DNA from: Candidatus Nomurabacteria bacterium RIFCSPLOWO2_12_FULL_40_42
GTDB taxonomy: Bacteria > Patescibacteriota > Minisyncoccia > Phycocordibacterales > UBA9973
Length of the DNA: 64,000 nucleotides
Assembly (NCBI GenBank): GCA_001786195.1
Contig: MFVS01000008.1
Location: 21,057-85,056 of the forward strand
Direction: 5' to 3'
The notes under the pieces are model-generated. The model was not told where the DNA came from. It saw only the letters and a list, made by a program, of their open reading frames with translations, and searched no databases. The position numbers and the translations under genes were made by a program. This document shows positions 3,029 through 64,000 of the stretch, in pieces; within the stretch, counting starts at the first letter, position 1; each line of letters opens with the position of its first letter.

Positions 3029-4915
3029 TTAATTATCCAACCCCTGTCTGGTCATTGCCCCCATCACCTCCCCGGCTTCAGCTTCTTCCTTGGCTTTTCT
3101 GTTGGATAGTATTTGCGAAGGGTCGGAGGTAATGATTTGGTCTTCGGTGTACGAAGCGATGATTTTGATGGCCACATGTTTTAAGCCGGCGAAGAAAATT
3201 CCTTCCCCCACTCCGGATTCCAAAAGCAGATATTTTTCTTCATCGGTCAGGTTGAAAGTTTTTTGCAGAATATCTATTGTAGTCGGAGACTGTTTTAATA
3301 ATAATTGGATAGAGGAATTGGTAATGATCGGCACGCCATAAGGAGACTTCATAAAGTCTGCCGCGTCCTGAGTGATGGTGGAAAGGCCAAGATAGTATTT
3401 TCGGCCTCGCTTGGCGATCGAATACAGGAAAGAAGCGGTGTCCTCGGACTTCATCATCCACCAGGCCTCATCTATTACTAGCAGCCTTTTTTTAAGATTC
3501 TTGCGTATAGCGTTCCAAATGTAATGCATGATTATATACATGGCGACCGGTTTCAATTCATCTTCCATGTCGCGGACCGAAAACACAATAAATTTTTTAT
3601 TGATGTCCACATTCGAGGATCGGTTTAAGAAAGTGGCCCAAGAACCTTTGGTGTATTTCGCCAGACGCTGCACGACTGAATCGCTTCCGTCCATTCCCGA
3701 GAGCACCATTTCAAAATCAGAGAGGAGCGGCGGCTCGACATTGGAAAAATTCGATTCCGGGGTGATGTCTTTCATGGCATAAGTTTCAGAAATGGCCCGA
3801 TCCACCATGGAATCTTCCTCGGGAGAGAGCCCTCCCAACATCAGCCGAAAAAGCCCGACCAAGTTTATGGTATTGGATCGAAGCACGTCCTCGGCCGTTT
3901 CATCTTCGCGCGGGATCGGCAGATCAAACGGATTGATATGGTGGTCGGAAGAAAGCGCGATGTTGAAATATCTTCCGCCCACCGCTTCCGACAAGAATTC
4001 GTATTCTTTTTCCGGGTCGATGACGATCACATCGATATCAAACATGAGTGACCTCAAAATTTCCAATTTGGTCGCATAGGATTTTCCCGAACCGGATTTG
4101 GCAAAAGTCACAGAATTATAGTTCTCTAAACTGAATCTGTCGAAGATAACAAGGGATGAATTATGCCGGTTGATGCCATAGAGAATGCCTTTATTGTCGG
4201 TCAAGTCGAAAGAAATAAAGGGGAAAACACTGGATAACGGCTCCGAATTTAATTTTTGGTGGATAGCAAGCAAATCGGTATCGATCGGGATGACACTTTT
4301 GAAACCCGCTTCCTGTTGGAAAAGCGCCGGTTTGATATAGATAAGCTTGGATTCGAGCATGGATTTTATTTCGTTCTCGATCTTGAACAATTCCAAATCG
4401 TTGTCGGCATAAATCGTGATATAAATGCCCACGTCAAACATTTTTTCTTGCGCCTGGATTAAATTGTCGCGCAAGCCCTCGAGGTCGAGGTTCGCGGTAT
4501 CAAGCATCGGGTCGCGCACCATTCCCTTTTTCTCTCGAACATTTATCTGGCTTTGAACTTCGGCTACTTTTTTCTGGAATTGCCGTAGCACCAGCGAAGT
4601 ATCTATCGGATGAATAAATATGGAAATATCAAAAACTTTATCCAGATTGATTATCGGTGAAAACCAATTATCAGTCAGAAATCTTGGATAAGAGATGATA
4701 AAAAATGTGCGGGCGATTTTGTCGCCCAAGTTTATGGATTTCGATTCGATCTTTAGGGCTGACGGCGCTATCACATCCTGGAGTTCCAAGCTGGCGGATT
4801 CGTAAATTTGTTCCGGCAGTACCGCCAAAGTGGAAGCCTGGGCGCCACTTTCTCCATCCGAATTGAGTCCGCTGGCTTTATTTGTTTTTTTAAATAATTT
4901 GTCTAAAATGGACAT
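3029..4915 (-). CDS. virB4: VirB4/TrbE-family T4SS ATPase (ATPase portion)
   Basis: 628 aa. Walker A AKSGSGKSYA, then LLVIDEAWWMM and ITQDAADF motifs typical of VirB4/TraC/CagE ATPases. Confidence 0.8.
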   Translation of the reverse strand: MSILDKLFKKTNKASGLNSDGESGAQASTLAVLPEQIYESASLELQDVIAPSALKIESKSINLGDKIARTFFIISYPRFLTDNWFSPIINLDKVFDISIFIHPIDTSLVLRQFQKKVAEVQSQINVREKKGMVRDPMLDTANLDLEGLRDNLIQAQEKMFDVGIYITIYADNDLELFKIENEIKSMLESKLIYIKPALFQQEAGFKSVIPIDTDLLAIHQKLNSEPLSSVFPFISFDLTDNKGILYGINRHNSSLVIFDRFSLENYNSVTFAKSGSGKSYATKLEILRSLMFDIDVIVIDPEKEYEFLSEAVGGRYFNIALSSDHHINPFDLPIPREDETAEDVLRSNTINLVGLFRLMLGGLSPEEDSMVDRAISETYAMKDITPESNFSNVEPPLLSDFEMVLSGMDGSDSVVQRLAKYTKGSWATFLNRSSNVDINKKFIVFSVRDMEDELKPVAMYIIMHYIWNAIRKNLKKRLLVIDEAWWMMKSEDTASFLYSIAKRGRKYYLGLSTITQDAADFMKSPYGVPIITNSSIQLLLKQSPTTIDILQKTFNLTDEEKYLLLESGVGEGIFFAGLKHVAIKIIASYTEDQIITSDPSQILSNRKAKEEAEAGEVMGAMTRQGLDN

Positions 4916-4920
4916 AGAGT

Positions 4921-5562
4921 TTAGCTTTCCAGCTGAATTTTTCCCTCGACTTCTCCCGGATTAAAAACTTTATAAAATACTTCCACCACTTCTTCGGTGC
5001 CGAGCTGGGCTGATTTTATGCCGCAACGGGAGAGGCCTTGCTCGATGACGCTTACTCGCTCTTCCAATTGCGACCTCTTTTCCTCGAAATCTTCCTGTTT
5101 GGCCAGATTCACTTCTTCCTTGCTTCTTTTTCCGAACAAGCGTTTCAAGATTCCAGAATCTGATTTGAGGACTGTGTGCGTATAAGGGATCACCACAAAA
5201 AAAGTTTTGGTCATTATGCTGACACTCTCGGCAAAATTCCTGATAAAATCAATATATTCCTTGGTTTGTAACTTTAAGAGGGGCTCGCTCTGCACTTTCA
5301 TCCGGTTTTCCAAAAGCAAAAGATAAGGACGGATATCCAATCTGCGGCTCTGCACCGATATCTGGACGGCAAAATCTAAAGTATTCAGGAAACTTTGGAA
5401 TTGCAATATTGTGGCCTTCTGCTCGTCATCGGATTTGAGCGACAGGTTGACCGAATTGGCGAGCACGATGGCCCGCAGGTCGCCATCTTTGAGCACGATG
5501 ATTCCATCACGGACTTCCCTGATTGGCACAAACTCTTGAGTTGCTTTTGCGTTTAAAGGCAT
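4921..5562 (-). CDS. VirB4 N-terminal-domain-like protein (possible split or frameshifted VirB4)
   Basis: 213 aa soluble ORF ending 6 nt before the VirB4 ATPase ORF, in a different frame. 213+628 aa is about the canonical VirB4 length. Sequence (VPIREVRDGIIVLKDGDLRAIV...) resembles VirB4/PrgJ N-termini. Confidence 0.45.
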   Translation of the reverse strand: MPLNAKATQEFVPIREVRDGIIVLKDGDLRAIVLANSVNLSLKSDDEQKATILQFQSFLNTLDFAVQISVQSRRLDIRPYLLLLENRMKVQSEPLLKLQTKEYIDFIRNFAESVSIMTKTFFVVIPYTHTVLKSDSGILKRLFGKRSKEEVNLAKQEDFEEKRSQLEERVSVIEQGLSRCGIKSAQLGTEEVVEVFYKVFNPGEVEGKIQLES

Positions 5563-5595
5563 CTTTTTACTTTATGAACTTTATAACTTTCTACT

Positions 5596-6030
5596 TTATA
5601 ACTCATTTTGGTGTTTGTTTAAGTCCAAGACGTCCAAACTCCAGGCCAAATCCCGCAATTTATTCCCACCTAGCCGAACAGTATCTCGATTCATATTCTG
5701 AGTGACCACTTCTCCCTCTGGCTCCCCACTCTTTATTTTATCTTGATTCTTTTTCTGCCTTTTCCAGATATAAAGCTTGCTCTGTATCAGATAATTAAAT
5801 CCGGCTTCAATCATATTTAGAAAGGGCTTATTGTTGGGTCGATAGCGAGCGAGAGCAATGGCGAGAGCGGCGACGGCGAGGATGGGTATAGCTCCCCAAA
5901 AGAGCCCCAATAGTTTGTAAAGCACAAAACACAAGCCCGCGCCGCCGGCTAGATACACAAACTCTTTGAAAGTGAATGGTCCAAAGATTTTGTCTTCGAT
6001 ATCTAAAAATTGTGGTACTTTAAATTGCAT
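5596..6030 (-). CDS. PrgI/VirB3-like small membrane protein
   Basis: 144 aa. N-terminus MQFKVPQFLDIEDKIFGPFTFKEFVYLAGGAG matches the PrgI-family signature, followed by two TM helices. Positioned directly upstream of VirB4 as VirB3/PrgI usually is. Confidence 0.6.
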   Translation of the reverse strand: MQFKVPQFLDIEDKIFGPFTFKEFVYLAGGAGLCFVLYKLLGLFWGAIPILAVAALAIALARYRPNNKPFLNMIEAGFNYLIQSKLYIWKRQKKNQDKIKSGEPEGEVVTQNMNRDTVRLGGNKLRDLAWSLDVLDLNKHQNEL

Positions 6031-6153
6031 CCCGTACGAAATAGGACGCGTACGCGTACGCTTCGTTGTCCTTTTTATTATTTATAATATATTTAATCAA
6101 TTTCATAATTTTGTTTACTTTATGCGTCCGCGATTTCGTTCGGGATCGCATAC

Positions 6154-6861
6154 CTAAGCTTCCGGCGGCAGACGATACGGATCGGCATTTTTGGGGTAAG
6201 ATTTTGGAGTCTCGGATACGGGTTCCTTTATTTCGCTTGAGGTCCTAGTAATATTTTCGATTGCATGCTCGGTTTTTACGACCGGGGTTTGCACCGTGCT
6301 GGATAATTTTTGGGTCAAGATAGGATGCGCCCTCTCTATCTCTAATTTTCCCGTCTGCATCAGCTGTGCTGAAGGCACTGCGGACAGGTCGTGAATAATT
6401 TCAATACCCGCTGACTTTAACACATGGGTATCTGTATGTATTTCTGTGTTCGCTCTCTCCTTTGAATCACCACCCCCTGCCCCCTCCTCCGAAAGGAGGG
6501 GAGGAGAACTTTTCACGAATATTTTTTTCCTCTCAGTGTTTTTAATTAATTCTTCCCTTATCTTTTTGAAGACCAGGTTATTCATTTCATTCACCAATTC
6601 ATTCGTGGCAGTCTCCGATATTTTTATCCTATTCATTAATTCCTTCGGATAGTTTTCCGCGCTTGTGAGCCCGCAAAGTAAAAGCTCCGTCTCGAGCTCG
6701 AGGTCGCCCAGTTGTTCGAAGGTGTATCCGTACTTACTTCGCAGTGACAAAATAGCCGTTTTCCAATCCACTACGGCAATAGCGTTCACTGTTTCGGTTG
6801 GTAAACTTGCTTTGGCTTCTTGTATTTTTATTTCTAATAAATCTACTGTGTCGTTGACCAT
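6154..6861 (-). CDS. hypothetical protein
   Basis: 235 aa ORF in the T4SS-like operon. Carries GC-rich insert 6481-6504 (EEGAGGGD). Confidence 0.4.
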   Translation of the reverse strand: MVNDTVDLLEIKIQEAKASLPTETVNAIAVVDWKTAILSLRSKYGYTFEQLGDLELETELLLCGLTSAENYPKELMNRIKISETATNELVNEMNNLVFKKIREELIKNTERKKIFVKSSPPLLSEEGAGGGDSKERANTEIHTDTHVLKSAGIEIIHDLSAVPSAQLMQTGKLEIERAHPILTQKLSSTVQTPVVKTEHAIENITRTSSEIKEPVSETPKSYPKNADPYRLPPEA

Positions 6862-6880
6862 ATATTTTTTACTTTATAAC

Positions 6881-7519
6881 TCATTGTATTATATCATTAA
6901 CTGGTTTTATATCGGCAGCCTTTAAAGTTTCCGCATTTTTATTTTGCATTTTAGTTTGGATGTCGGCTAGGGAGAGAGTGGTGGCGGGCGGCACAGAAAA
7001 TACCGGGATGATTGTTTTTTTATTTCCCTCTTGAGGGGTGGCCCTGAGATTTTCTGGGCCGGGGTGGATGTATTGTCCACCTCCTCCTAGCGGGTACTCC
7101 TCAAGAGGAGAATTTGGGGTCATGAATGCCGAATAATCTCCGCCGGAGAGAATGAAATTTACATTTTGCATGGCGGTTGGATTTTTAATTTTCAGATTTT
7201 TCTTGATATTGTCTTCCAAAATTTTTCTAATTGGCTTAAATATCCTCTCTAAAGCCTCATCGGCCATGCTTTTCGCTCCATCCTTGGTAGTGCCGACATG
7301 ATTTTCGATGTTAATAGCGTAAAATTCGAAGTCGGCAGCGCCAATCAAAATTATTAAAGTTTCTAGAATAAAATCGTCAATCTCTTCTTCCGTCAGATTA
7401 TATTTAGCTCCTATTTCTTCGGCGATTTTAACCCAAGGCACAGCCGAAATGGCTTCCTGCCCTTCTTTAGGCAATTGTGCGATTTCCTCTTCAATTGTTT
7501 GTTTTAATTTTTCGGTCAT
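6881..7519 (-). CDS. hypothetical protein
   Basis: 212 aa ORF in the T4SS-like operon. Carries an 82-bp inverted-repeat-flanked GC-rich insert 7027-7109 (EEYPLGGGGQYIHPGPENLRATPQEG). Confidence 0.4.
   Translation of the reverse strand: MTEKLKQTIEEEIAQLPKEGQEAISAVPWVKIAEEIGAKYNLTEEEIDDFILETLIILIGAADFEFYAINIENHVGTTKDGAKSMADEALERIFKPIRKILEDNIKKNLKIKNPTAMQNVNFILSGGDYSAFMTPNSPLEEYPLGGGGQYIHPGPENLRATPQEGNKKTIIPVFSVPPATTLSLADIQTKMQNKNAETLKAADIKPVNDIIQ
7027..7109. repeat. 82-bp GC-rich element with 10-bp perfect terminal inverted repeats, in-frame in a CDS
   Basis: CCTCTTGAGG...CCTCAAGAGG termini. The interior contains GTCCACCTCCTCC. Encodes ...EEYPLGGGGQYIHPGPENLRATPQEG. Confidence 0.55.
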
Positions 7520-7648
7520 CCCGTTAGAGATAGGAAATCTTTAGATTTCCGTTCCCTTAATTATTATTAATATCTTATTTAAGTTTAACATTATTTTTTA
7601 CTTCTATTTTAGTTTTTAACTATTTGATCTCTAACGGGAGTCATTGTA

Positions 7649-8212
7649 TTATTTTGGTCTAAATCCTATCTGGGTTTTTGGTTTTTCTTCTTTTGGTTTT
7701 TCTTTTTTCAGCAGTTGTTTTAATATCTCAAAAACCTCTTTCAGTTGATAATTATATTTTTTCTCCATCTTTTCTATTTTTATTCGGAGCTTCGTATTGG
7801 TTGCGAGCAATTCTCTTAATTTTGTAAAAGTTCTGATTATCTGAATGTTTACAAGTATTGCTCTTTTGCTGTTTAAAACGCTAGATAACATGGCGACACC
7901 TTGTTCGGTAAATGCGTAAGGCAACTTGCGTGTTCCGCCATGACTTGATATCACAAATTGTGACATCAAGTTTGATGTTCCAAATTGGAATATCAAGTTT
8001 TCAAATTCCTCTTTTGTTAGTTGAAACATAAAATCATTTGGAAAACGCTCCATATTTCTTTTTACTGCCTGAATTAATACTCTTGTTTCAACTTGATAAA
8101 GATGTGCTAAATCTTTATCCAGCATTACTTTTTTACCGCGAATAAAAAGTATACCATTTAGGATTCTTTCACTCGGTATTAAACTTTTTGTTTGTTTTAA
8201 TTTTTTGGGCAT
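7649..8212 (-). CDS. ORF6N-domain protein
   Basis: ILFIRGKKVMLDKDLAHLYQVETRVLIQAVKRNMERFPNDFMFQLTKEEFENL...RKLPYAFTEQGVAMLSSVLNSKRA matches the ORF6N (KilA-N-like) domain common in mobile elements. Confidence 0.75.
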   Translation of the reverse strand: MPKKLKQTKSLIPSERILNGILFIRGKKVMLDKDLAHLYQVETRVLIQAVKRNMERFPNDFMFQLTKEEFENLIFQFGTSNLMSQFVISSHGGTRKLPYAFTEQGVAMLSSVLNSKRAILVNIQIIRTFTKLRELLATNTKLRIKIEKMEKKYNYQLKEVFEILKQLLKKEKPKEEKPKTQIGFRPK

Positions 8213-8227
8213 AGAATTTTAAGACTC

Positions 8228-10813
8228 TTAAGGATGTGGAGGGTGTGGAGGATGTTCAGGAGGACGACCACCTCCAATAAATGCTTCTGCTAAAGCTGCA
8301 GCTGCTAAGTCTCTGCCAAATTCTGCTCCTGGCGTATGTACGTCAGTTTTTTCTTCTTTTGGTTTTACTCCCATTCTTATTGCATGAGCAGACTCTCTAC
8401 GCGCGGCTTTGTTCCAAGGCCAGGCAAATGAATTTTCAATATCATTGGCAAATGCTCTTATTCTTTTCTCTCCAACTTCTTTTACCTTATGTTGAAGATC
8501 TGGAATTATTTTATCTTCAAGTTGATCCATTGATCTTCCGCCACCATGTTTGGCAGAAGCAAGTGCTGCCTTTGCTACTGCTGCTGCATTTTCCAATTCC
8601 GAAGCGTTGGAGGCTCCGGCTGTAATAGCTGCCAATGCCGCCGCCTCTGCTCTTTCCGCCTCTGCCTCTAATTCAGAGACCCTATTAACATCTCCTGTTG
8701 CCTTCTTTATCTTATCCTTGAATTCTTTTAACGTTGCCAGTTTATCATTTGCTGCTTTCTTAGCTGCAACTTTAGCAGGATCATTAACATCCATAGCCAT
8801 AGCCGATGCCAAAGTGTTTTGCTTAGCAGGATCGGTATCAGCCATTGCTCTTGCAGCACTTATGGCAGCTTCTCTAGTTGCAACCTTATTAGAATCAGTA
8901 GTATCTCTTGAATTTAAGTCACTTGCATTTTTTCTTGCCGACTCAATCTTTTTATTAAGTTGCTCAAGTTCGTGTGAACTTTCCAAGGAGAGGGCCTGAA
9001 TCGCGTCTTCAGCTGCATTTAATTCCTGTTTCTCTTTTTCGCCTTCCTTGGTTTTAAGTCCTGCAGCTCTCTTCTTTCTCTTTTCGTCTCGTCCCTTCAA
9101 ATCAGCCATGTATCCACCCTCTTCCGTTGAAAGGTATTTTCCTCCTCCTAAGTTGACCCCGGTTATTTTAGATACAGCACCAAAAGCTCCGCCAAACGCA
9201 CCCTTTCTTATATCAAAACTCGAACCCGCAAATCCTCCCTTGCCATCATCTCCACCTGCGATAGTTCTTCCCATACTAGCCAAACGTCTCTGGGCCCAAT
9301 TGCCCTTTGTTTCCCAATCTTGCATCTTTGTACTGTCAAAAACTTTTTTACCTAAATGCCCAGCAGTTCCCTGCAGGACTTTGGCCCCAACCATCATCGT
9401 TCCGCCGGTCGCTGCGCCGATGGCAAGTCCGGTGACCACCTTACCAATTCCTGATGCTATCTCTGCAATTTTTCCTCCTGCCGCTTTAGCAAAGTGGATC
9501 GCTTTGAGAAGCAGAAACATGCTTATTAATGCCGGCAATATTAAAGACAATATATACGGGATAAATCCTTCACCAGTCAGAAGTTTCATTTTCGAATATT
9601 CCTTCAATAACATAAATATCAAATACATAAAAAACATAAAAACTGGAGCCATAAAAGACATTTTAATCAAACGTTTATGCCAGGCGTTCCAGCCCAGATA
9701 TTCCACACCTTGAAGTGCCGGTAAGGCGAAAGACATAAAAGCGAAAGGGGCAAAAATGATCAAAGCCCAAAGTTCGAGCAACCTGCCCAAAAATGCGGCT
9801 CCGGCGACGAAAAAAGCGAAGGCAGCAAAGAACATGATAGATCCAGAGATGATCATTAATCCAAGTGTCAACCCGAAAGGAAGGTTTTCTTTTGATTCTG
9901 TTTTTTCGCCTAATACCGTTATTGTTTTCAGTTTTTTAAGTGTAGGAAAGTCTACCAGCTTAGTAGGGTTAAATGCCTCAACTATCTCGCCAGATATATC
10001 TTTTTCTGTACTGCCTGCAGATTGATCATACACTTTTTGTCTTCCTGGGTTAACTTTCAGTTTATTATAGAAAACCAAAGCCAGAATATTAGAAGAATCT
10101 ATAACCACTTTTGTGAAAAACATTGAAAAGTTTATAAGTAAAGCCATGATTATTACCCAAACTACCGCCTTTTTAGTTTCATGTCCTATCCCTAAAATTG
10201 TTTGAATCGCTACATAAAGTAAAATAAGGATGAAAAAAATATTAGAAAGATCACGCACTACAGCCCAAGCGCTAGATACGAAACCCGAGTCGGTCAAGAC
10301 CGCTAGCTTATTTATCCCAACAGACACCATGGCATTAAAGAAGTTTGCAGACAATATAAGCAGTAAATTTGGGAGTTGGAAGTAAGTGTAGTAAACAATC
10401 CATAAAAAACATCCCTTCACAAGTTGAGATAAATCAAAAGTAGCTCCGCAACCGTTATTAATTTCTCCTCTAAATGTATCAGCTTCTGTTTTTGGTGTTG
10501 TTCCTGTCGCCCCTGCTGCTAGGGTTGCTGGTGTTGCTGGCGCAGGATTGCTAGGGCTGTATGGAGTAAAAATACCTATACCACGACAGTTCTCTGGAGT
10601 GGAGGGGAAAGGTGCTATGTATGTTATTCCACTCGTGCGCTGACAAGTTCCCGTTGCTACCACAGGTGTTGGTGTAGGTGCTGGTTGCGCCTCCACTTGT
10701 TTCCCTCCCGGCCCAAAAAGTCCGACGAGGATAAGCAGTATCAATCCCGTTAGAAGCAATTTACGAATAGTTGGGGATTTTGTTGTATTTCGTGTTAAAT
10801 TATTTTGTGACAT
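8228..10813 (-). CDS. VirB6/TrbL-like polytopic membrane protein with long Ala/Lys-rich coiled-coil tail
   Basis: 861 aa. Signal peptide, Pro/Thr-rich linker, at least 6 predicted TM helices in the middle, then a C-terminal coiled-coil region ending in PPEHPPHPPHP. Heads the T4SS-like operon. Confidence 0.45.
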   Translation of the reverse strand: MSQNNLTRNTTKSPTIRKLLLTGLILLILVGLFGPGGKQVEAQPAPTPTPVVATGTCQRTSGITYIAPFPSTPENCRGIGIFTPYSPSNPAPATPATLAAGATGTTPKTEADTFRGEINNGCGATFDLSQLVKGCFLWIVYYTYFQLPNLLLILSANFFNAMVSVGINKLAVLTDSGFVSSAWAVVRDLSNIFFILILLYVAIQTILGIGHETKKAVVWVIIMALLINFSMFFTKVVIDSSNILALVFYNKLKVNPGRQKVYDQSAGSTEKDISGEIVEAFNPTKLVDFPTLKKLKTITVLGEKTESKENLPFGLTLGLMIISGSIMFFAAFAFFVAGAAFLGRLLELWALIIFAPFAFMSFALPALQGVEYLGWNAWHKRLIKMSFMAPVFMFFMYLIFMLLKEYSKMKLLTGEGFIPYILSLILPALISMFLLLKAIHFAKAAGGKIAEIASGIGKVVTGLAIGAATGGTMMVGAKVLQGTAGHLGKKVFDSTKMQDWETKGNWAQRRLASMGRTIAGGDDGKGGFAGSSFDIRKGAFGGAFGAVSKITGVNLGGGKYLSTEEGGYMADLKGRDEKRKKRAAGLKTKEGEKEKQELNAAEDAIQALSLESSHELEQLNKKIESARKNASDLNSRDTTDSNKVATREAAISAARAMADTDPAKQNTLASAMAMDVNDPAKVAAKKAANDKLATLKEFKDKIKKATGDVNRVSELEAEAERAEAAALAAITAGASNASELENAAAVAKAALASAKHGGGRSMDQLEDKIIPDLQHKVKEVGEKRIRAFANDIENSFAWPWNKAARRESAHAIRMGVKPKEEKTDVHTPGAEFGRDLAAAALAEAFIGGGRPPEHPPHPPHP

Positions 10814-29146: not shown

Positions 29147-31345
29147 TTATATTAATTTTTTATTATGAAACTTCTTGTGTATATCTCGCAGATGTTTGTC
29201 GGTCACATGGGTGTAGATCTGGGTGGTGCCGATGTTGGCATGGCCGAGCATGGCTTGGACAGAACGGATATCAGCACCGTTGCTTAACAAGTCGGTCGCG
29301 AAGCAATTATGAGAGATAAAGCCATCAGTAATTAAGTTTTCGTATTTATCCACGGCAAAATCATAGACCAATCCTTTATATTTTTGTTTATTAATTTTAT
29401 TAACCCGTAGCCACTGTATATTATTACTTTCAATAAGATTTTCTAAAAAATTTAACCTCTTATCTTTACAATGCGCACCTCGTAAGTATTTTATAATCTT
29501 TTTAAGCACCTCTTTTGTGGGGATAATAGAGGTAGTAGTTCCAACATATCGATATATGTCAATCCCTTCTTCTATTTTAAGATATCGAGCAAAATTATGC
29601 CATTTATTATCAAGTGAATGATAGATGTCTCGCAATATTTCTCTAACTGGAATTTTTTCTCCTTCAAATATATCGTTTGGCGTTGTTTTTTTTAAAGTTG
29701 GAATAATTTTCTTAAATAATTCTTGGTCTGGTTTGTGCAATATCTGTAAATTATACATAACATGATCAATTAATTTTCCACCAGGCAATCTGACTCTTCT
29801 TGATCTAGTGTACAGATGAGAGTCAATGCCAAGAGTAAGTAGCAACATTTGTATATCTTTGAGAAGCATTTTGCTGGTGGAGAAAAATTTTACTGATGAA
29901 CCCTCATTTCCTTCAGCATCATAATAGCCGGCTATAAAATGCGCGATCGTCGCTTTATTTTGGGAAAAAAGAGACTTCGGGACCCTTCGGAATGGCGATT
30001 TTTCTGTAATACCAATTTTTCTTAAGTATGCTATAAATGATTTTGAATAAAAATTTAAAAGATAACTATTCACACTGTTTTTTTTTATTATTGTTGGCTG
30101 ATGTTTGTATTCAGATACTATTATGTTTTTATAATGATTAACGAAAGACAGATTTTTATCCGCGATAATTACACCCCTCCTTTTTTCACTAATAGTTCCA
30201 TCTCCTAAAATATATCCAATAAGACGCCACTTATCTTTACTTTCTGATTTATTGGAACTATCCATTCTTGCTTTTCTTATGCCAGCCACGAATTGTCCAA
30301 TCTTTAGATTTTTTGCGAAAACTTCCTCGACTCCATTTATCCCAATAGTAAAAAATAGGTGATCCTTTGTGGTTGAGATTGTATATCCATTGGCTGAAAT
30401 ATTGATCAAGTCAACAAATCGATGATTAGTTTTTTGAATAATTTTGGATTTTATAGTTTTACCTTTTTTAAAGTCTACCGCGGTGATGTTTTTTGAGGAT
30501 GATTCGAACAGTTCCTTGGCTGACATTATTGTGTGTGGTAAGAAGATTAATGTGTCTGGATGAAGACAATGCCTTATCACGTGCGGAGTTACTTTTTTCG
30601 AAATACCGGCGATGGTGGCGTATCTTTTGACAATTCTTTCTATTGACCGGCGAGTCAGACCTTCATCGGTCGGTTTCTTTGAAATTTCATCAGCGATTTT
30701 TACAAACAGAGCGTCGGACATATCCTTGCGCAGGGCGAGGTAAGCTTTGACCGCAGCCTTGGCTTCATCGGAGAGGAAAACTACCCGCACTTTACCTCCT
30801 TTGCCGCGAATGGGAAATTCATCTAAACGCAAATCTAGATCATTGGTAAGCGAACAGAGTTCGGAAACCCGCAGACCGGTGGAAAAAAGCATCTCCATGA
30901 TGGCTTTATCCCGAGCTTTCCTTTCCGGATTCTTTTCTTTGTTGGGAGCATCCAAAAGCCGTTTCAATTCTTCCTGCGAAATGACATCAATTTGTCTTTC
31001 ACCGACTTTCGCTAGTTCGATTTGATCGGCAGGTAGGGAAGTGATATTTCTTTTTGCCAGAAATTTAAGAAAACTTCGCAGGGCGATCATGTAATAATTT
31101 TGAGTTTTCTTTTTTATGGTCTCTCCGGTTGCGCGATTGTTTCCGGTTGTCTGACGATTAAGCCAAATGCGAAAATCTCGGACTTTTGCATCTGTGATTT
31201 CGCTGGGGTCAGTAACTTTTGTTTGTTCGAGAAAGACGGTTAAGTAATGATCATAATTTTCTACAGTTCTAATGGCGCGACCTTTTTCGATCTCGACATA
31301 TTCCAAAAATTGAGTTTTGAGTTGTTTGAGGGAGGCCATAAACAT
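29147..31345 (-). CDS. XerC/XerD-family tyrosine recombinase interrupted by an intein
   Basis: N-terminal SAM-like domain. Catalytic LRVSEL...HVIRH|[intein]|[34 protein letters not shown]. Extein residues R, HxxRH and Y are all present once the intein is removed. Confidence 0.8.
29306..30568 (-). mobile_element. intein (421 aa) with LAGLIDADG homing-endonuclease domain inside the recombinase gene
   Basis: Begins CLHPDTLIF immediately after HVIRH. Ends ...FISHN followed by the +1 Cys of CFATDLL. Internal LAGLIDADG-like motifs [11 protein letters not shown] and [10 protein letters not shown]. Inserted exactly at the conserved HxxRH-S/C site. Confidence 0.75.
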
Positions 31346-42201: not shown

Positions 42202-42595
42202 TCATTTATGTGGAGGAGTTTTCTTTTCGAGACCTTTCTTCCAACCACCCAGCATTCTGCCTATTTCCTGCAAGTGTTCGGATAGAGCAGAATACTTTTC
42301 ATTCGGGATGCATTTATTTCCCCAAGCTATCTGCAGAAAGAATTTTATGCCGTCGAGTTTGGAAATCGCGATGATGAGACGAGGTATTTTAGTTTCCGGC
42401 GGGAGATATATTGAAACAAAAATATTTTCCAAAAGGCCGAGGAAATAATCTTCTATCTTTCCACCTAGGGTGTAGCGGTGCGCCTTTGGAAAATCATTGT
42501 ATATTTTAAACCAAAGAGAATAGGCTGTTTTTGTCTTTAAAAGCGCTGAAGGCGCTGCGGGGGGGGGTCCCGGAAATATGAAACAATTTATTCAT
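42202..42595 (-). pseudogene. avd: Avd (accessory variability determinant; four-helix-bundle family), antisense to the TR/RT, apparently frameshifted
   Basis: Minus-strand frame encodes ...YSLWFKIYNDFPKAHRYTLGGKIEDYFLGLLENIFVSIYLPPETKIPRLIIAISKLDGIKFFLQIAWGNKCIPNEKYSALSEHLQEIGRMLGGWKKGLEKK, matching the TIGR02436/Avd consensus. There is no in-frame ATG/GTG/TTG upstream. ATG 42593-42595 is in the -1 frame and terminates at 42506, implying a frameshift near the A5/G9 homopolymers. Confidence 0.5.
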
Positions 42596-43588
42596 ACTTA
42601 CGATAGTACCATAACAATAGAAAAACTGCTCAAGGCATGGCAGGAATTCGTGCGCGACAAGAAAAACAAAAAAGATGTGATTTTATTCCAGGCCAAGCTG
42701 ATGGATAACATATTCGATCTTTTTAATGATCTTAAAAACAAAACTTACAAGCACGGCGGTTATATCGCTTTTAATATATCAGATCCTAAACCTAGGCAAA
42801 TACACAAGGCAACAGTTCGAGATAGGTTGCTGCATCATTTGATATATCGAGAACTTTACGAACATTTTAATTCAAAATTTATCCACGACTCATATTCCTG
42901 CCGATTAAACAAAGGAACCCACAAAGCGATCAACAGATTCCGCGATTTTTTCCGAAAAGTTTCCAAAAATCACGCAAAGACGTGCTTTGTTCTCAAGTGC
43001 GATATCAAGAAATTCTTTGCCAACATTGATCATCAAATTTTAAAGCAAATTTTAGAAAAACACATCGAAGACAAAAATATTATCTGGCTTCTTTCACAAG
43101 TTATAAATAGTTTTTATACTCAACTAAATACTAAAAACTCTGCGATAGCAGAAAGTTTAGTAAAAGGTTTGCCATTAGGGAATCTAACTTCCCAACTTCT
43201 GGTAAATGTTTACATGAATGAATTTGACCAGTTTATGAAAAGAGAATTGAAAGTAAGGTATTATATACGATACGCAGACGATTTTGTAATATTGAGTGAT
43301 AATAAAAATTATCTTGAAGACTTACTTCTAAAGGTCTCTAGCTTCTTAGAAAAAGAATTAAAATTACAATTACACCCAGACAAAGTTTTTATGAAAACTT
43401 TCGCTTCCGGTGTTGATTTTCTAGGCTGGGTACATTTTTCAAAGTATAGAGTTTTGAGGACGAGTACAAAAAGAAAGATGTTGAGGAATCTTGAAAAAAA
43501 TTTTAAAGAAGAGTCACGACAGTCATATTTAGGAATGTTGAAACACGGGAATGCTTATAAGCTCAAAAGTGAGATTGAAAACTTATAA
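42578..43588 (+). CDS. DGR reverse transcriptase
   Basis: 336 aa. Motif 2 VLKCDIKKFFANIDHQIL. Motif 4 GLPLGNLTSQLLVNVYM, the DGR-diagnostic [ILV]GxxxSQ in place of QGxxSP. Motif 5 RYADDFVIL. Confidence 0.9.
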   Translation: MKQFIHTYDSTITIEKLLKAWQEFVRDKKNKKDVILFQAKLMDNIFDLFNDLKNKTYKHGGYIAFNISDPKPRQIHKATVRDRLLHHLIYRELYEHFNSKFIHDSYSCRLNKGTHKAINRFRDFFRKVSKNHAKTCFVLKCDIKKFFANIDHQILKQILEKHIEDKNIIWLLSQVINSFYTQLNTKNSAIAESLVKGLPLGNLTSQLLVNVYMNEFDQFMKRELKVRYYIRYADDFVILSDNKNYLEDLLLKVSSFLEKELKLQLHPDKVFMKTFASGVDFLGWVHFSKYRVLRTSTKRKMLRNLEKNFKEESRQSYLGMLKHGNAYKLKSEIENL

Positions 43589-46353: not shown

Positions 46354-47859
46354 ATGCGAGATAGGATTTTTTATGCGATATGTTTTGGTTTTATCTTTGG
46401 GGTGTTTTTGCGCTCTTTTTTATTTTTCAATTTATATTTTGCTGTTTGGGTCGCAGTGGTCAGTGTGGCCTTAGCTTTATTTTTCTCTCTAATTTCTAAA
46501 AACAAGTGGGGCATCATATTCTCCATTTTTATTTTAACTTTTTGCTTAGGAATTTTCAGATTTCATGCGGCAGATGTTCCATCACCTAGTGTTTTCGAAT
46601 CGCAGGTGGGTCAAAAAGTATTTTTCACTGGAAAAATTATAGATGAACCGGATATAAGGGAAAATAATCAAAAACTGACTATTGAAGCGCAAATTGGACA
46701 AGACCCACGTCAGGGCGGGGCAAGCAAAACTAAAATTTTAGTCACTGTAAATTTCGGTCAGGATTTTAAATACGGCGACGAGGTAAAATTTTCGGGAAAA
46801 TTACAGAAACCGGAAAATTTTATGACGGATCAGGGTAAAAAGTTTGATTATGTAAATTATTTAAGGAAGGACGGGATTTATTACGTAATGAATTATGTAA
46901 ATGTCGAGGTCATCTCAGGGGGGAATGGCAACATAATTAAAAGCGCGCTGTTTTTCGTAAAAGAAAAGTTCTTAGCGAAAATGGATTTTGCTATAAAAAC
47001 TCCTGAATCGCTTCTCATGGGTGGTTTGATATTGGGCGAGCGTTCTTCTTTTAATAATGAAATGCGAGAGAAGTTTATAAATACTGGCACGATCCATATC
47101 GTGGCTCTCTCGGGATACAATGTGACAATCGTCGCCGAATGGATTATGAAACTATTTTCTGGAGTGCCTTATGTAGCTAAAAATTTCGGCATTGGGATGG
47201 GTATTTTCACTATTTTGCTTTTTGTGTTGATGACGGGTGGGAGTTCGACTGCGATCCGGGCGGGGATAATGGCGACCTTAGCGCTAATTGCCCGCGCGAC
47301 CGGGAGAAATTATGACGTCGCGCGGGCTCTCATGCTCGCCGGGGTGGGAATGATTTTACTAAATCCTTTTGTGCTAGTTTACGACGTATCTTTTCAGCTT
47401 TCTTTTATCGCGACAGTGGCGGTAATATTTTTTACCCCTAGAATTGAAAAATATTTTTTATGGGCGCCAGATGTTTGCAAACTGCGGGACATCATTTCCG
47501 TCTCCTGTGCCGCCTATATTTTTGTCTTGCCATTTATCCTCTACAAAATGGGCAATCTTTCTCTAGTCGCCCTGCCGGCCAATATTTTAATTCTACCGTT
47601 TATCCCGTTTACCATGTTGCTCGGGTTTCTGACTGGTTTTGTCGGGCTTATTTCATATATATTGGCTGTACCCATAGGCTATATTTCCTATCTCATGCTT
47701 CATTATGAACTCGGAGTGATAAATTTTTTCTCCAGTCTGCCCTTTGCCGCTTTTTCTGTTCCGAATTTTCCGCTCATTCTAACAACTTTAATTTACATCT
47801 ATTTTATTTATAGACTTTTTGGCAGAAATATAAAGAGTTTCTTTACTGCGTCCCAATAA
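46354..47859 (+). CDS. comEC: ComEC/Rec2 competence channel (membrane domain only)
   Basis: About 10 TM helices. ALSGYNVTIVA and FQLSFIATVAV are competence-domain signatures. No beta-lactamase domain in this ORF. Confidence 0.75.
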   Translation: MRDRIFYAICFGFIFGVFLRSFLFFNLYFAVWVAVVSVALALFFSLISKNKWGIIFSIFILTFCLGIFRFHAADVPSPSVFESQVGQKVFFTGKIIDEPDIRENNQKLTIEAQIGQDPRQGGASKTKILVTVNFGQDFKYGDEVKFSGKLQKPENFMTDQGKKFDYVNYLRKDGIYYVMNYVNVEVISGGNGNIIKSALFFVKEKFLAKMDFAIKTPESLLMGGLILGERSSFNNEMREKFINTGTIHIVALSGYNVTIVAEWIMKLFSGVPYVAKNFGIGMGIFTILLFVLMTGGSSTAIRAGIMATLALIARATGRNYDVARALMLAGVGMILLNPFVLVYDVSFQLSFIATVAVIFFTPRIEKYFLWAPDVCKLRDIISVSCAAYIFVLPFILYKMGNLSLVALPANILILPFIPFTMLLGFLTGFVGLISYILAVPIGYISYLMLHYELGVINFFSSLPFAAFSVPNFPLILTTLIYIYFIYRLFGRNIKSFFTASQ

Positions 47860-57607: not shown

Positions 57608-59350
57608 ATGACCCAAGATCAGGCTTTAAATATTTTAAAAACCGGTGCCAATGTTTTTCTAACTGGCGAGCCGGGGGCGGGGAAGACGCATACCATAAAT
57701 AATTTTGTAAATTATCTGCGCGACTGCGATATTGAGCCGGCGATCACAGCTTCGACCGGTATCGCAGCGACGCATATCGGCGGAATGACGATTCATTCTT
57801 GGAGCGGCATTGGCATTCGGACCAAACTCGACAAATATGACTTGGATAAAATCGCGAGCAGTGAATATATTGTAAAGCGGGTCAATCGAACCAAGGTTTT
57901 GATTATTGATGAGATTTCCATGCTCTCGACGAATATGCTCGAGATGGTGGATCTGGTTTGCCGGGAAATCAGACAGAGCAGCGAGCCCTTTGGTGGTATT
58001 CAAATTATTCTGGTTGGCGATTTTTTCCAGCTGCCACCGATTACTAAAAGAGACGAAAGTGTTAAACAAAATTCACTGATTGCGGAAGTCGGATTTCCGC
58101 GTTTTGCTTACCATTTCGGAGCTTGGGAGCGCTCGCGGCTCGTAGTGTGCTATTTGAGCGAACAACACCGCCAGGATGATGCGGATTTTCTTTCCGTGCT
58201 TTCGGGCATCCGGGCGAACAATGTTTCGGAAATGCATCGGAATCATCTCCAGACTCGGCATATTCGCACGGATAAGCTTCCAGAAAACATTCAGAATATT
58301 ACCAAACTTTTTTCGCACAATGTGGATGTGGATCGGGTCAACAACGAAGAGCTAGCCAAATTGAATACCGAAAGGAAATTATTCCGAATGTCCGGGAGTG
58401 GAAATGAAAAAGTAGTCGAGACTCTCAAGAAGGGCTGCTTGTCGCCGGAGAATTTGGAACTCAAAATCGGCGCGGTGGTGATGTGCACCAAGAATAATCC
58501 GAAAGAGAGGTTTGTAAATGGCACTCTCGGCATTGTGGTTGGTTACGAAGAATTTAGCGGCTATCCGATTATCAAAACTCGAAATGGACGGAGCATCAAG
58601 GTGGCGCCGATGGATTGGAGCGTGGAAGAAAACGGCAAAATTCGGGCGCAGATTACCCAGGTGCCGCTCCGGCTGGCCTGGGCGATCACCGTGCACAAGA
58701 GCCAGGGGATGAGCATGGACGCCGCGGTGATGGATTTGTCGCAAGTGTTTGAGTTTGGGCAGGGGTATGTGGCGCTCTCGCGGGTGCGCCGGCTCTCGGG
58801 CCTGTATCTTCTCGGCATAAATGCTCACGCGCTCAAAGTGCATCCGGAAATTTTGCAAAAAGATATCGATTTTAAAAATAAATCAGATGAAGCGGTAAAA
58901 GTTTTCGGTAAAATTTTGGAAGCGGATTTAAAAAAGATGCATGAAAGTTTTGTGGTGACTTGCGGAGGAAAGATCAAAACTAAATCCGGAGGAAAACACC
59001 ACTTGGAGGCAAGGCCTCCAAGTGGTGTAAATATAAAAAAAGAAAGAAGATGGGAACAAACTCTATCCTTCATACAAGATGGTAAAAGTATTTTAGAAGT
59101 AGCACATTTGCGTGGTAGAAAAGAAGAAACAATTATAGAACATCTAGAAGAATTAAAAAAGATTGGAAAGTTGACGGAAGAAACGAAGAATATTTTAAAG
59201 TTAAAAATTACCAAAGAGCAAGAAGATCAAATAAACAAAGTTCGTTTATCTATGCTTTTGCTGGGTGCGGAGCTACTTAAACCAATATATGATCACTTTG
59301 GTGGGAAAATTTCATATGAGAATATTCGTTTGGCTCGACTTTTGTCCTAA
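57608..59350 (+). CDS. Pif1/RecD-like SF1 DNA helicase
   Basis: VFLTGEPGAGKTHTI Walker A, LIIDEISML Walker B, ITVHKSQGM motif. C-terminal helical extension. Confidence 0.7.
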   Translation: MTQDQALNILKTGANVFLTGEPGAGKTHTINNFVNYLRDCDIEPAITASTGIAATHIGGMTIHSWSGIGIRTKLDKYDLDKIASSEYIVKRVNRTKVLIIDEISMLSTNMLEMVDLVCREIRQSSEPFGGIQIILVGDFFQLPPITKRDESVKQNSLIAEVGFPRFAYHFGAWERSRLVVCYLSEQHRQDDADFLSVLSGIRANNVSEMHRNHLQTRHIRTDKLPENIQNITKLFSHNVDVDRVNNEELAKLNTERKLFRMSGSGNEKVVETLKKGCLSPENLELKIGAVVMCTKNNPKERFVNGTLGIVVGYEEFSGYPIIKTRNGRSIKVAPMDWSVEENGKIRAQITQVPLRLAWAITVHKSQGMSMDAAVMDLSQVFEFGQGYVALSRVRRLSGLYLLGINAHALKVHPEILQKDIDFKNKSDEAVKVFGKILEADLKKMHESFVVTCGGKIKTKSGGKHHLEARPPSGVNIKKERRWEQTLSFIQDGKSILEVAHLRGRKEETIIEHLEELKKIGKLTEETKNILKLKITKEQEDQINKVRLSMLLLGAELLKPIYDHFGGKISYENIRLARLLS

Positions 59351-63294: not shown

Positions 63295-63376
63295 CAGTTA
63301 TGTAATCAATTACGTAATTAAATACGTATTCTAATATTTTCTTGCATCGTAACCCCAAAAATGATCTAATGGAAAA

Positions 63377-64000
63377 GTGAATTTAATTTTAGATGAAAAT
63401 TTAGCAAAACTATATAATAGTAATTCTCAAAAAATGAGAGTTTTGAGCGAGCAGTGGGTGGGTAGTCAGATATATTGTCCAAATTGCGGAAAAGTCGATA
63501 TTGATAAATATTTAAACAACAAACCTGTCGCTGATTTTTACTGCAAAAATTGTTCTGAAGATTTTGAGTTAAAATCCAAGAAAGGAAAAATTGGCAACAA
63601 AGTTTCTGCTGGTGCATATTCAAAAATGATTGAAAGAATAAACTCTACATCAAAGCCCAATTTTTTCTTTATGGGTTATTTAGAATCTCTGTTTGTAAAT
63701 GATTTCTTTGTAATACCCAAACACTTTTTTCTTTCTGAAATAATCGAGAAAAGAAAACCCCTTAAAGAAACTGCGCGTCGAGCAGGATGGATTGGTTCAA
63801 ATATTTTGTTTTCCAAGATACCCAAAGCAGGTCAGATATTTTATATTGAAGACGGAAAAGAAATATCTAAAAAAGAAGTTTTAGAGAAATGGCAAAAAAC
63901 TATTTTTCTAAAAGGAATTAAAAAAGCCGATGCAAAAGGATGGATTTTAGATATTATGAATTGTATTGATTTTTTGAATAAAAAAGAATTTTCTCTGCAA
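63377..64000 (+). CDS. DpnI-like methyl-directed (GmATC) restriction endonuclease, 3'-partial
   Basis: GTG start. NSNSQKMRVLSEQWVGSQIYCPNCG...KPVADFYCKNCSEDFELKSKKG...PNFFFMGY...RKPLKETARRAGWIGSNI tracks S. pneumoniae DpnI almost motif for motif. Runs off the window end. Confidence 0.75.
   Translation, partial: MNLILDENLAKLYNSNSQKMRVLSEQWVGSQIYCPNCGKVDIDKYLNNKPVADFYCKNCSEDFELKSKKGKIGNKVSAGAYSKMIERINSTSKPNFFFMGYLESLFVNDFFVIPKHFFLSEIIEKRKPLKETARRAGWIGSNILFSKIPKAGQIFYIEDGKEISKKEVLEKWQKTIFLKGIKKADAKGWILDIMNCIDFLNKKEFSLQ

Follow-up and report, generated by a model that had tools for sequence, protein, structure and literature searches.

A Complete Solitary dpnI-Type Gene, Probably Encoding a Methyl-Dependent GATC Endonuclease, in a Nomurabacteria Chromosome

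Gene Structure and Family Assignment

The 64,000-nt stretch of DNA analysed here (hereafter the window) ends inside an open reading frame that starts with GTG at position 63377 in frame 1 of the plus strand and stays open up to base 64000. Its absence from the program-made ORF list is explained solely by its extending past the window end. Based on its translation, Pfam and PDB matches, and identical contigs, the segment 63377..64000 was identified as the first 208 of the 255 codons of a dpnI-type gene. The continuation was read from contigs L065 and L071–L073, which overlap the window end. The overlap with L071–L073 extends over 7,108 nt with 0 mismatches, and that with L065 over 6,115 nt with a single mismatch at 57926, far from the dpnI gene; beyond the window end these contigs are mutually consistent. 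The stop codon is a TAG at window-equivalent position 64144, 144 nt beyond the window end, which yields a protein of 255 aa. Neither the truncation nor the frameshift that a preceding sequence-only reading of the window had considered possible just outside its edge is present, the ORF being uninterrupted to 64144 in the overlapping identical contigs. The same 255-aa ORF is identical in L065–L073 and, overall, in more than 20 contigs from several samples, and the database protein P0001 (255 aa) is 100% identical across all 208 in-window residues.

The in-window fragment matches the Pfam family PF06044 (DpnI) with an E-value of 7.6e-75 (residues 1–179, profile positions 1–181 of 183) and the first part of PF17726 (DpnI_C; positions 1–24 of 70), and it is collinear over residues 6–208 with R.DpnI from S. 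pneumoniae (PDB 4esj/4kyw; E 6.5e-63). For the full protein P0001, the alignment to 4esj covers residues 8–253 at 49% identity (E 1.5e-82), and PADLOC assigns it to mREase_II (E 1.8e-105; positions 2–254 of 256), classed as a defence nuclease. Two domains are thus covered by these matches. The N-terminal PD-(D/E)XK catalytic domain (residues 1–179, PF06044) is encoded at 63377..63913 on the plus strand; in DpnI itself, the catalytic domain comprises residues 1–182 (PMC4117772). The C-terminal winged-helix domain, the sensor of N6-methyladenine (m6A), begins in the window with residues 185–208 (63929..64000, plus strand; PF17726), and its residues 209–255, which lie beyond the window, were recovered from the identical contigs. 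This domain, which the sequence-only reading expected beyond the window, is complete in P0001 and aligned to DpnI through residue 253.

The assignment to the DpnI family made in that reading was also confirmed by the Pfam and PDB matches, and all motifs that it quoted were found in the translation, i.e., NSNSQK (residues 14–19), LSEQWV (23–28), YCPNCG (33–38), PVADFYC (50–56), CSEDFELKSKKG (59–70), PNFFF (94–98), RKPL (126–129), and TARRAGWIG (132–140).

The family is large, with 2,573 database proteins matching at E ≤ 1e-10. Homologues with 69–81% identity occur in metagenome-assembled genomes (MAGs) labelled as Nomurabacteria, Paceibacteria, Moraniibacteriota, Taylorbacteria, Campbellbacteria, and Saccharibacteria, and five of the related loci (L002, L015, L046, L049, and L060) contain pseudogenes. 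A protein identical to the one studied here, with M for the GTG start, is already present in GenBank (OGI62077.1, KKR62836.1), where the entry of Candidatus Nomurabacteria bacterium RIFCSPHIGHO2_01_FULL_39_220 is labelled “restriction endonuclease” and that of Parcubacteria group bacterium GW2011_GWA2_40_37 “Dam-replacing family protein”. The copy in the window is therefore an ordinary, uncharacterised member of a known family that is annotated in public databases. It is under strong purifying selection, with pairwise dN/dS values of 0.03–0.12 against relatives and 0.08–0.11 against the closest of them.

Conservation of Functional Residues

In DpnI, the catalytic residues are E25, D53, E64, and K66, and a Cys4 zinc site is formed by two CXXC motifs (PMC3424567; PMC4117772). 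Base contacts are made by Q18, N48, R126, and R135, of which R126 and R135 contact guanines, and both N6-methyl groups are held in a cleft formed by L129, R135, and W138 and supported by G140 (PMC4117772). In the winged-helix domain, the functional residues are K229 and R231 (PMC3424567; PMC4117772). The numbering of the protein studied here coincides with that of native DpnI up to approximately residue 180, and its K230 and R232 correspond to DpnI K229 and R231.

All 17 characterised functional residues of DpnI are present, namely, Q18, E25, C34, C37, N48, D53, C56, C59, E64, K66, R126, L129, R135, W138, G140, K230, and R232. According to the DpnI alignment, the catalytic and zinc core (E25, C34-x2-C37, N48, D53, C56-x2-C59, E64-L-K66) is encoded at 63449..63574 of the plus strand, with the zinc site represented by C34-P-N-C37 and C56-K-N-C59, two CXXC motifs flanking the aspartate of the “PD” motif. 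The loop that recognises both N6-methyl groups along with the outer G:C pairs (residues R126, L129, R135, W138, and G140; RKPLKETARRAGWIG) is encoded at 63752..63796 of the same strand. In an alignment of 58 intact homologues, 14 of the 17 positions are invariant, while L129, W138, and G140 are each kept in 56 proteins, L129 being an alignment gap in the other two.

The N. gonorrhoeae enzyme Drg, experimentally demonstrated to be GmeATC-specific (PMC4269198), is 45% identical to the protein studied here over the full length. Since Drg and DpnI share this specificity, it has been retained across a divergence wider than that between the present protein and DpnI. We infer the enzymatic activity and the Gm6ATC specificity by homology; the protein is very probably an active Gm6ATC-specific type IIM endonuclease.

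Start Codon, Expression Signals, and Genomic Context

The GTG at 63377 is a credible start codon, because homologues start with ATG-AAT-TTA at exactly the site where the gene in the window reads GTG-AAT-TTA, and because the alternative start, M20, is located downstream of Q18, a residue that contacts DNA. M20 (63434; 236 aa) was chosen in KKS73442.1 and in some metagenome calls, and it would remove the conserved N-terminal helix including Q18.

The only room for a dedicated promoter is the AT-rich spacer of 82 nt (63295..63376) that separates the GTG from the upstream gene of a 133-aa membrane protein. Visual inspection of this spacer yields a weak promoter candidate, TTGCAT (63342–63347) and TCTAAT (63365–63370) separated by 17 nt, with 6 nt left before the GTG. 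This pair falls below the criteria of the promoter scan, in which promoter-like matches in the region occur at the chance level. A terminator scan of the region around dpnI found no candidates, including between dpnI and the neighbouring genes, and a search of the extended locus L065 against Rfam gave no match.

The window is chromosomal, containing genes for ArgRS, a PIF1-type helicase, UvrD, RecJ, PGK, SHMT, PilB/PilC, a TraG-like ATPase, and tRNAs. The comEC gene (46354–47859) and type IV pilus genes are also found there. Since rnpA, dnaA, and dnaN are situated no more than about 6 kb left of its first base, the window is origin-proximal. The dpnI gene itself is flanked by the membrane-protein gene upstream and by small ORFs followed by clpS downstream. 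Beyond clpS, 1–3 kb downstream of dpnI, are genes for a MazE-like antitoxin, a pair of HTH_17 and 141-aa Fic proteins, and a 376-aa homologue of SoFic (PADLOC, E 3e-113), which together occupy positions 7281–9585 of L065 (window-equivalent 65166–67470). With dpnI, these genes form a small defence/toxin islet.

The gene bears the marks of a horizontally mobile gene, since its GC content is low (29.8% against 39.7% for the region) and since upstream sequences differ in every locus. Of 55 related loci, 54 have a DpnI homologue whose GC content is below that of its flanks, and the sequences 5′ of the homologues are unrelated between loci right up to the start codon. Polymorphism of the locus and carriage by a phage or plasmid were considered and rejected. 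A DpnII-type alternative cassette at this locus was not seen, as all contigs with the upstream 133-aa protein show the same synteny. Searches of IMG/VR returned no close relative, phage records matching the winged-helix domain only. The only full-length matches in the plasmid collection turned out to be N. gonorrhoeae chromosomes.

The Downstream Gene

Directly downstream of dpnI are two small ORFs of 53 and 67 aa (L065 6294–6455 and 6519–6722; window-equivalent 64179–64340 and 64404–64607), which are in the same frame and are parted by a single TAA. This TAA is fixed in all six contigs examined. In L003, L009, L019, and the Sulfurimonas locus L064, the corresponding gene encodes one continuous acidic protein of about 142 aa (pI 4.5); only its N-terminal half was observed in L001 and L002, and only its C-terminal half in L013, L017, L022, and L027. 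A conserved acidic ORF of about 142 codons consistently follows DpnI homologues both in CPR and in a Sulfurimonas MAG. Should the enzyme depend on this partner for its function or control, the split may have altered the system in this population.

The 610 members of the partner family are without exception annotated as hypothetical and match nothing in Pfam (even at E ≤ 10) or PHROG. Three look-ups starting from partner proteins each placed the partner gene 35–60 nt downstream of a DpnI gene, in neighbourhoods that are otherwise unrelated. An AlphaFold2 model (pLDDT 77) had no informative structural neighbour. In many other lineages, the gene after DpnI carries a C-terminal DpnD/PcfM-like domain (36 loci) or belongs to another small family. 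The position, size, and acidity of the partner are analogous to those of pneumococcal DpnD (from L080; 153 aa, pI 4.6). Homology to DpnD was considered and rejected, as the partner does not match PF14207 and hhalign gives a probability of 0.08% for its comparison with S. pneumoniae DpnD.

GATC Methylation and Methylase Genes

The sequence-only reading expected a cell with such an enzyme to lack Dam methylation. The incompatibility of the two is well founded, given that all residues responsible for the Gm6ATC specificity are conserved. A contiguous stretch of 82,852 nt, in which the window is extended by 8,708 nt on its left and by 10,144 nt on its right, was screened by tblastn and contained no homologue of a DNA methyltransferase; this is approximately one-tenth of a typical CPR genome, the genome in question probably being 0.6–1 Mb in size. 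The queries were E. coli Dam, a Dam-like remnant from CPR (Parcubacteria), an intact D12 protein from Bacteroidota (a Flavobacteriales MAG), and an N6_N4 methylase, the Dam-like and N6_N4 queries being taken from related loci. A remnant of dam beside dpnI was likewise rejected, as neither E. coli Dam nor the Dam-like sequences of related loci gave anything credible there. Scans of the same 82.9 kb with the motifs [DNSH]PP[YFWH] and PCQ found no motif of amino-methyltransferases or C5-methyltransferases in a real gene.

GATC itself shows neither depletion nor excess. Its 240 sites, found in 74 kb (about 3.2 per kb), correspond to an observed-to-expected ratio (O/E) of 0.92 and do not cluster near dnaA. 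The absence of methylases from the 82.9 kb and this ratio are compatible with an unmethylated genome.

Among 64 related GTDB loci, ten carry a D12/Dam-like ORF just 5′ of the DpnI homologue, nine of these ORFs directly abutting it, and about 20 metagenome loci have such an ORF as well. Most of these ORFs (L023, L024, L032, L034, L061–L063, and about 20 metagenome loci) have lost the conserved C-terminus or more. For instance, the truncated ORFs in L023 (9234–9992) and L024 (9245–9994) lie upstream of the DpnI homologue, the latter covering positions 1–198 of the 253 of the D12 Pfam profile; in L061, the coverage is 1–228. The Dam-like ORF of L032 is degraded, and in L025, which is outside the ten, only about 30 N-terminal residues are kept. 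In most loci, the ORF is cut short after the DPPY motif or has decayed further, and in many Bacteroidota-like loci the ORF ends after RRSINANPE. Between L023 and L024, dN is 0.138 for the Dam remnant vs. 0.028 for the adjacent DpnI gene; dS is saturated, so that these values are not expressed as a ratio.

In Neisseria, an endonuclease gene is found in place of dam in the so-called “dam-replacing” arrangement (PMC516771; PMC4269198). The truncated dam-like genes beside DpnI homologues repeat this arrangement, and they lend indirect support to the suggestion that Dam is absent from the organism studied here. On the other hand, apparently intact D12 methyltransferases (Pfam positions 1–253 of 253, with the C-terminal motif present) abut the DpnI homologues in L055 (9159–9998) and L056 (9120–9998), and these homologues also seem to be intact, with all key residues present. 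This would mean that such pairs are tolerated or that one of the two genes is inactivated by an unseen cause. The claim that DpnI implies the absence of Dam is therefore weakened in its absolute form.

Flavo-1 and Methylase Operons in Related Loci

In Bacteroidota-like metagenome loci, the genes are arranged as M1(D12)-[DpnI-small gene]-M2(DpnA-like). This layout looks like an MboI-type M1-R-M2 operon with the R gene replaced by a DpnI cassette.

In L112 (2892–2968), L125 (2891–2967), L131 (1586–1664), and L141 (2889–2967), the Rfam motif Flavo-1 (RF01705; 49–60 bits) was observed where the C-terminally truncated Dam-like gene meets the start of DpnI. In L054 (9910–10002, minus strand), the motif is found a little upstream of the start of DpnI, and no Dam-like gene was detected at that locus. 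The gene after the DpnD-like one often encodes a DpnA/MboC-like N6_N4 methylase. It is possible that Flavo-1 is not an sRNA but a repeat or junction element at the level of DNA.

One possible, though rather unlikely, generalization from the related loci, as distinct from the window, is that dpnI and its partner constitute a mobile cassette that repeatedly enters and inactivates GATC-methylase loci across phyla. In CPR, it would land in dam-like genes; in Bacteroidota, its targets would be MboI-like M1-R-M2 operons, with the junction there marked by Flavo-1. Each landing would switch a lineage from GATC methylation to restriction of methylated GATC, and the partner family might be a regulator or inhibitor that makes acquisition of the cassette survivable. 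The Nomurabacteria copy would then represent a late stage, at which the remnant of dam has gone and the partner gene is now decaying. These wider patterns, i.e., the conserved partner and the repeated association of the cassette with GATC-methylase genes that it truncates or that are otherwise shortened, are of more interest than the gene itself, and both are found outside the window.

Comparison With Characterized Systems

The closest characterised system is R.DpnI of S. pneumoniae (type IIM/IIE; PDB 4ESJ, 4KYW; encoded by dpnC). The two proteins have a common two-domain architecture and similar lengths (254 aa vs. 255 aa here), with 49% identity over 246 aligned residues and identical catalytic, Cys4 zinc, GATC-contact, methyl-cleft, and winged-helix K/R residues. 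Both genes are solitary, with no cognate methylase (for the present copy, within the 82.9 kb read around it), and both are immediately followed by a small acidic gene. Unlike in the pneumococcal dpnC-dpnD pair, the downstream gene here is not dpnD and is split by a stop codon. Further differences are the CPR host, the GTG start, and the fact that no alternative DpnII cassette was seen at the locus.

DpnII and MboI have the same GATC target with the opposite polarity, as they cut unmethylated GATC and need methylases. No methylase or endonuclease of the DpnII/MboI type was found in the 82.9 kb studied here, whereas in relatives the DpnI cassette lies among methylase genes of the DpnII/MboI kind (D12 Dam-like and DpnA/MboC-like).

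HhiV4I and HHPV4I are reportedly m6A-dependent type IV enzymes with a winged-helix fusion, sharing the methyladenine sensor of the DpnI_C type. They have another nuclease domain and cleave at a distance, whereas the protein studied here has the PD-(D/E)XK domain of DpnI and is collinear with DpnI over the full length. Haloarcula virus HHPV4 matches only residues 159–254 of the protein.

Like the gene in the window, the gene of Neisseria Drg / NmeBII is a stand-alone gene of a GmeATC endonuclease with a GC content below that of the host genome (PMC4269198). The drg gene is located in the leuS/dam locus in place of dam (PMC4269198), while the present copy, with no remnant of dam, lies between the membrane-protein gene and the small ORFs preceding clpS. 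The neisserial arrangement, absent here, is present in L023, L024, L025, L032, L034, and L061–L063.

Proposed Function and Alternative Explanations

Taken together, the sequence comparisons make it highly likely that the locus carries a complete solitary dpnI-type gene for a type IIM restriction endonuclease in a Nomurabacteria (Patescibacteria/CPR) chromosome from the Rifle aquifer, whose host leaves its own GATC sites unmethylated and cuts foreign duplex DNA with Dam-type methylation. The PD-(D/E)XK nuclease domain would be stabilised by the Cys4 zinc site, the winged-helix domain would sense methylated DNA, and each of the two would separately recognise GATC containing N6-methyladenine. As in DpnI, efficient cutting of duplex GATC is expected only when both adenines are methylated. 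No protective methylase would be needed, as the cell’s own GATC sites would stay unmethylated. Incoming double-stranded DNA with Dam-type methylation would be cleaved, mainly that of phages that methylate their own DNA or were grown in Dam+ hosts. We infer, in addition, the genome-wide absence of Dam methylation and phage DNA as the natural target.

The sequence-only reading linked the enzyme to DNA uptake via ComEC and T4SS-like systems. This relevance appears to be weak, even though comEC is in the window, because DNA imported by these routes is single-stranded and is not cut by DpnI. Conjugative transfer, too, delivers a single strand. In pneumococcal strains with DpnI, the enzyme is no barrier to transformation, as fully methylated duplex GATC is never formed after integration (PMC3573125). 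The target of the enzyme is likely to be double-stranded phage DNA with Dam-type methylation.

In L055 and L056, the DpnI homologue is intact and has an apparently intact D12 methyltransferase gene directly 5′ of it. This pairing, together with the MboI-like operon layout of Bacteroidota-like loci, could mean that the enzyme, while intact, is not a methyl-dependent GATC cutter in this lineage, either having shifted its sequence or methylation specificity or acting as the partner of a GATC methylase. We regard this as quite improbable. All base-contacting and methyl-pocket residues are as in DpnI, and Gm6ATC specificity is common to the two relatives that have been characterised, DpnI (49% identity) and Drg (45%). 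Most of the flanking D12 genes have lost the conserved C-terminus, and no methylase is found near dpnI in the 82.9 kb screened.

It is very improbable that dpnI confers no restriction activity and merely persists, silent or in decay, from a cassette acquired by horizontal transfer. An uninterrupted ORF, identical across many contigs and samples, the retention of all functional residues, and the dN/dS of 0.08–0.11 against the closest relatives are all difficult to reconcile with decay, and no terminator separates dpnI from its neighbours. What such a history would account for are the GC content, low relative to the genome, the partner gene broken by a stop codon, the GTG where homologues have ATG, the lack of a clear promoter, and the occurrence of a few pseudogenes among relatives (the five loci listed above).

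Least probable of all is a main role other than anti-phage defence, such as nucleotide scavenging from Dam-methylated host or environmental DNA by an auxotrophic episymbiont, in line with a preprint proposing that CPR restriction enzymes aid nucleotide recovery from foreign DNA (10.64898/2026.07.13.738296) and with the presence of comEC and type IV pilus genes in the same window, or a physiological effect like that of Neisseria Drg on viability and biofilm (PMC4269198), given that the protein has no signal peptide and is hence cytoplasmic, that ComEC supplies single strands, which DpnI does not cut, and that the neighbours are defence/toxin modules (SoFic, Fic, MazE) and the PADLOC class is that of defence nucleases.

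Restriction of Dam-methylated duplex DNA by a cell with unmethylated GATC leads to two predictions. The organism is expected to have no Dam-type GATC methylation, and DNA from dam+ E. coli is expected to be restricted if introduced as a duplex, a practical point for the genetics of Patescibacteria. The gene adds one more element to the defence islet (DpnI, Fic/HTH, SoFic, and MazE) and has no bearing on ComEC-mediated uptake. To our knowledge, CRISPR is largely absent from the lineage.

Other Features of the Window

The palindromic tetramer with the strongest depletion in the window and the 10-kb extension is GGCC (O/E 0.63, z −7.1); CTAG, in contrast, occurs in excess (O/E 1.35). The depletion of GGCC may reflect past or present restriction targeting this tetramer, although the sequence covered here revealed no cognate system.

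A stand-alone reverse transcriptase of 336 aa (Pfam RVT_1, E 1.8e-26) is encoded among housekeeping genes at 42578–43588 on the plus strand; it could be of the retron, DGR, or group II intron type. Two further features are located on the minus strand. At 29147–31345, an intein containing a LAGLIDADG homing-endonuclease domain interrupts the gene of a tyrosine recombinase (Phage_integrase with a SAM-like N domain). The T4SS-like cluster at 3029–10813 includes, besides an 861-aa ORF that matches no Pfam family, genes for a TraG P-loop ATPase and for TraC-like and PrgI-like proteins.
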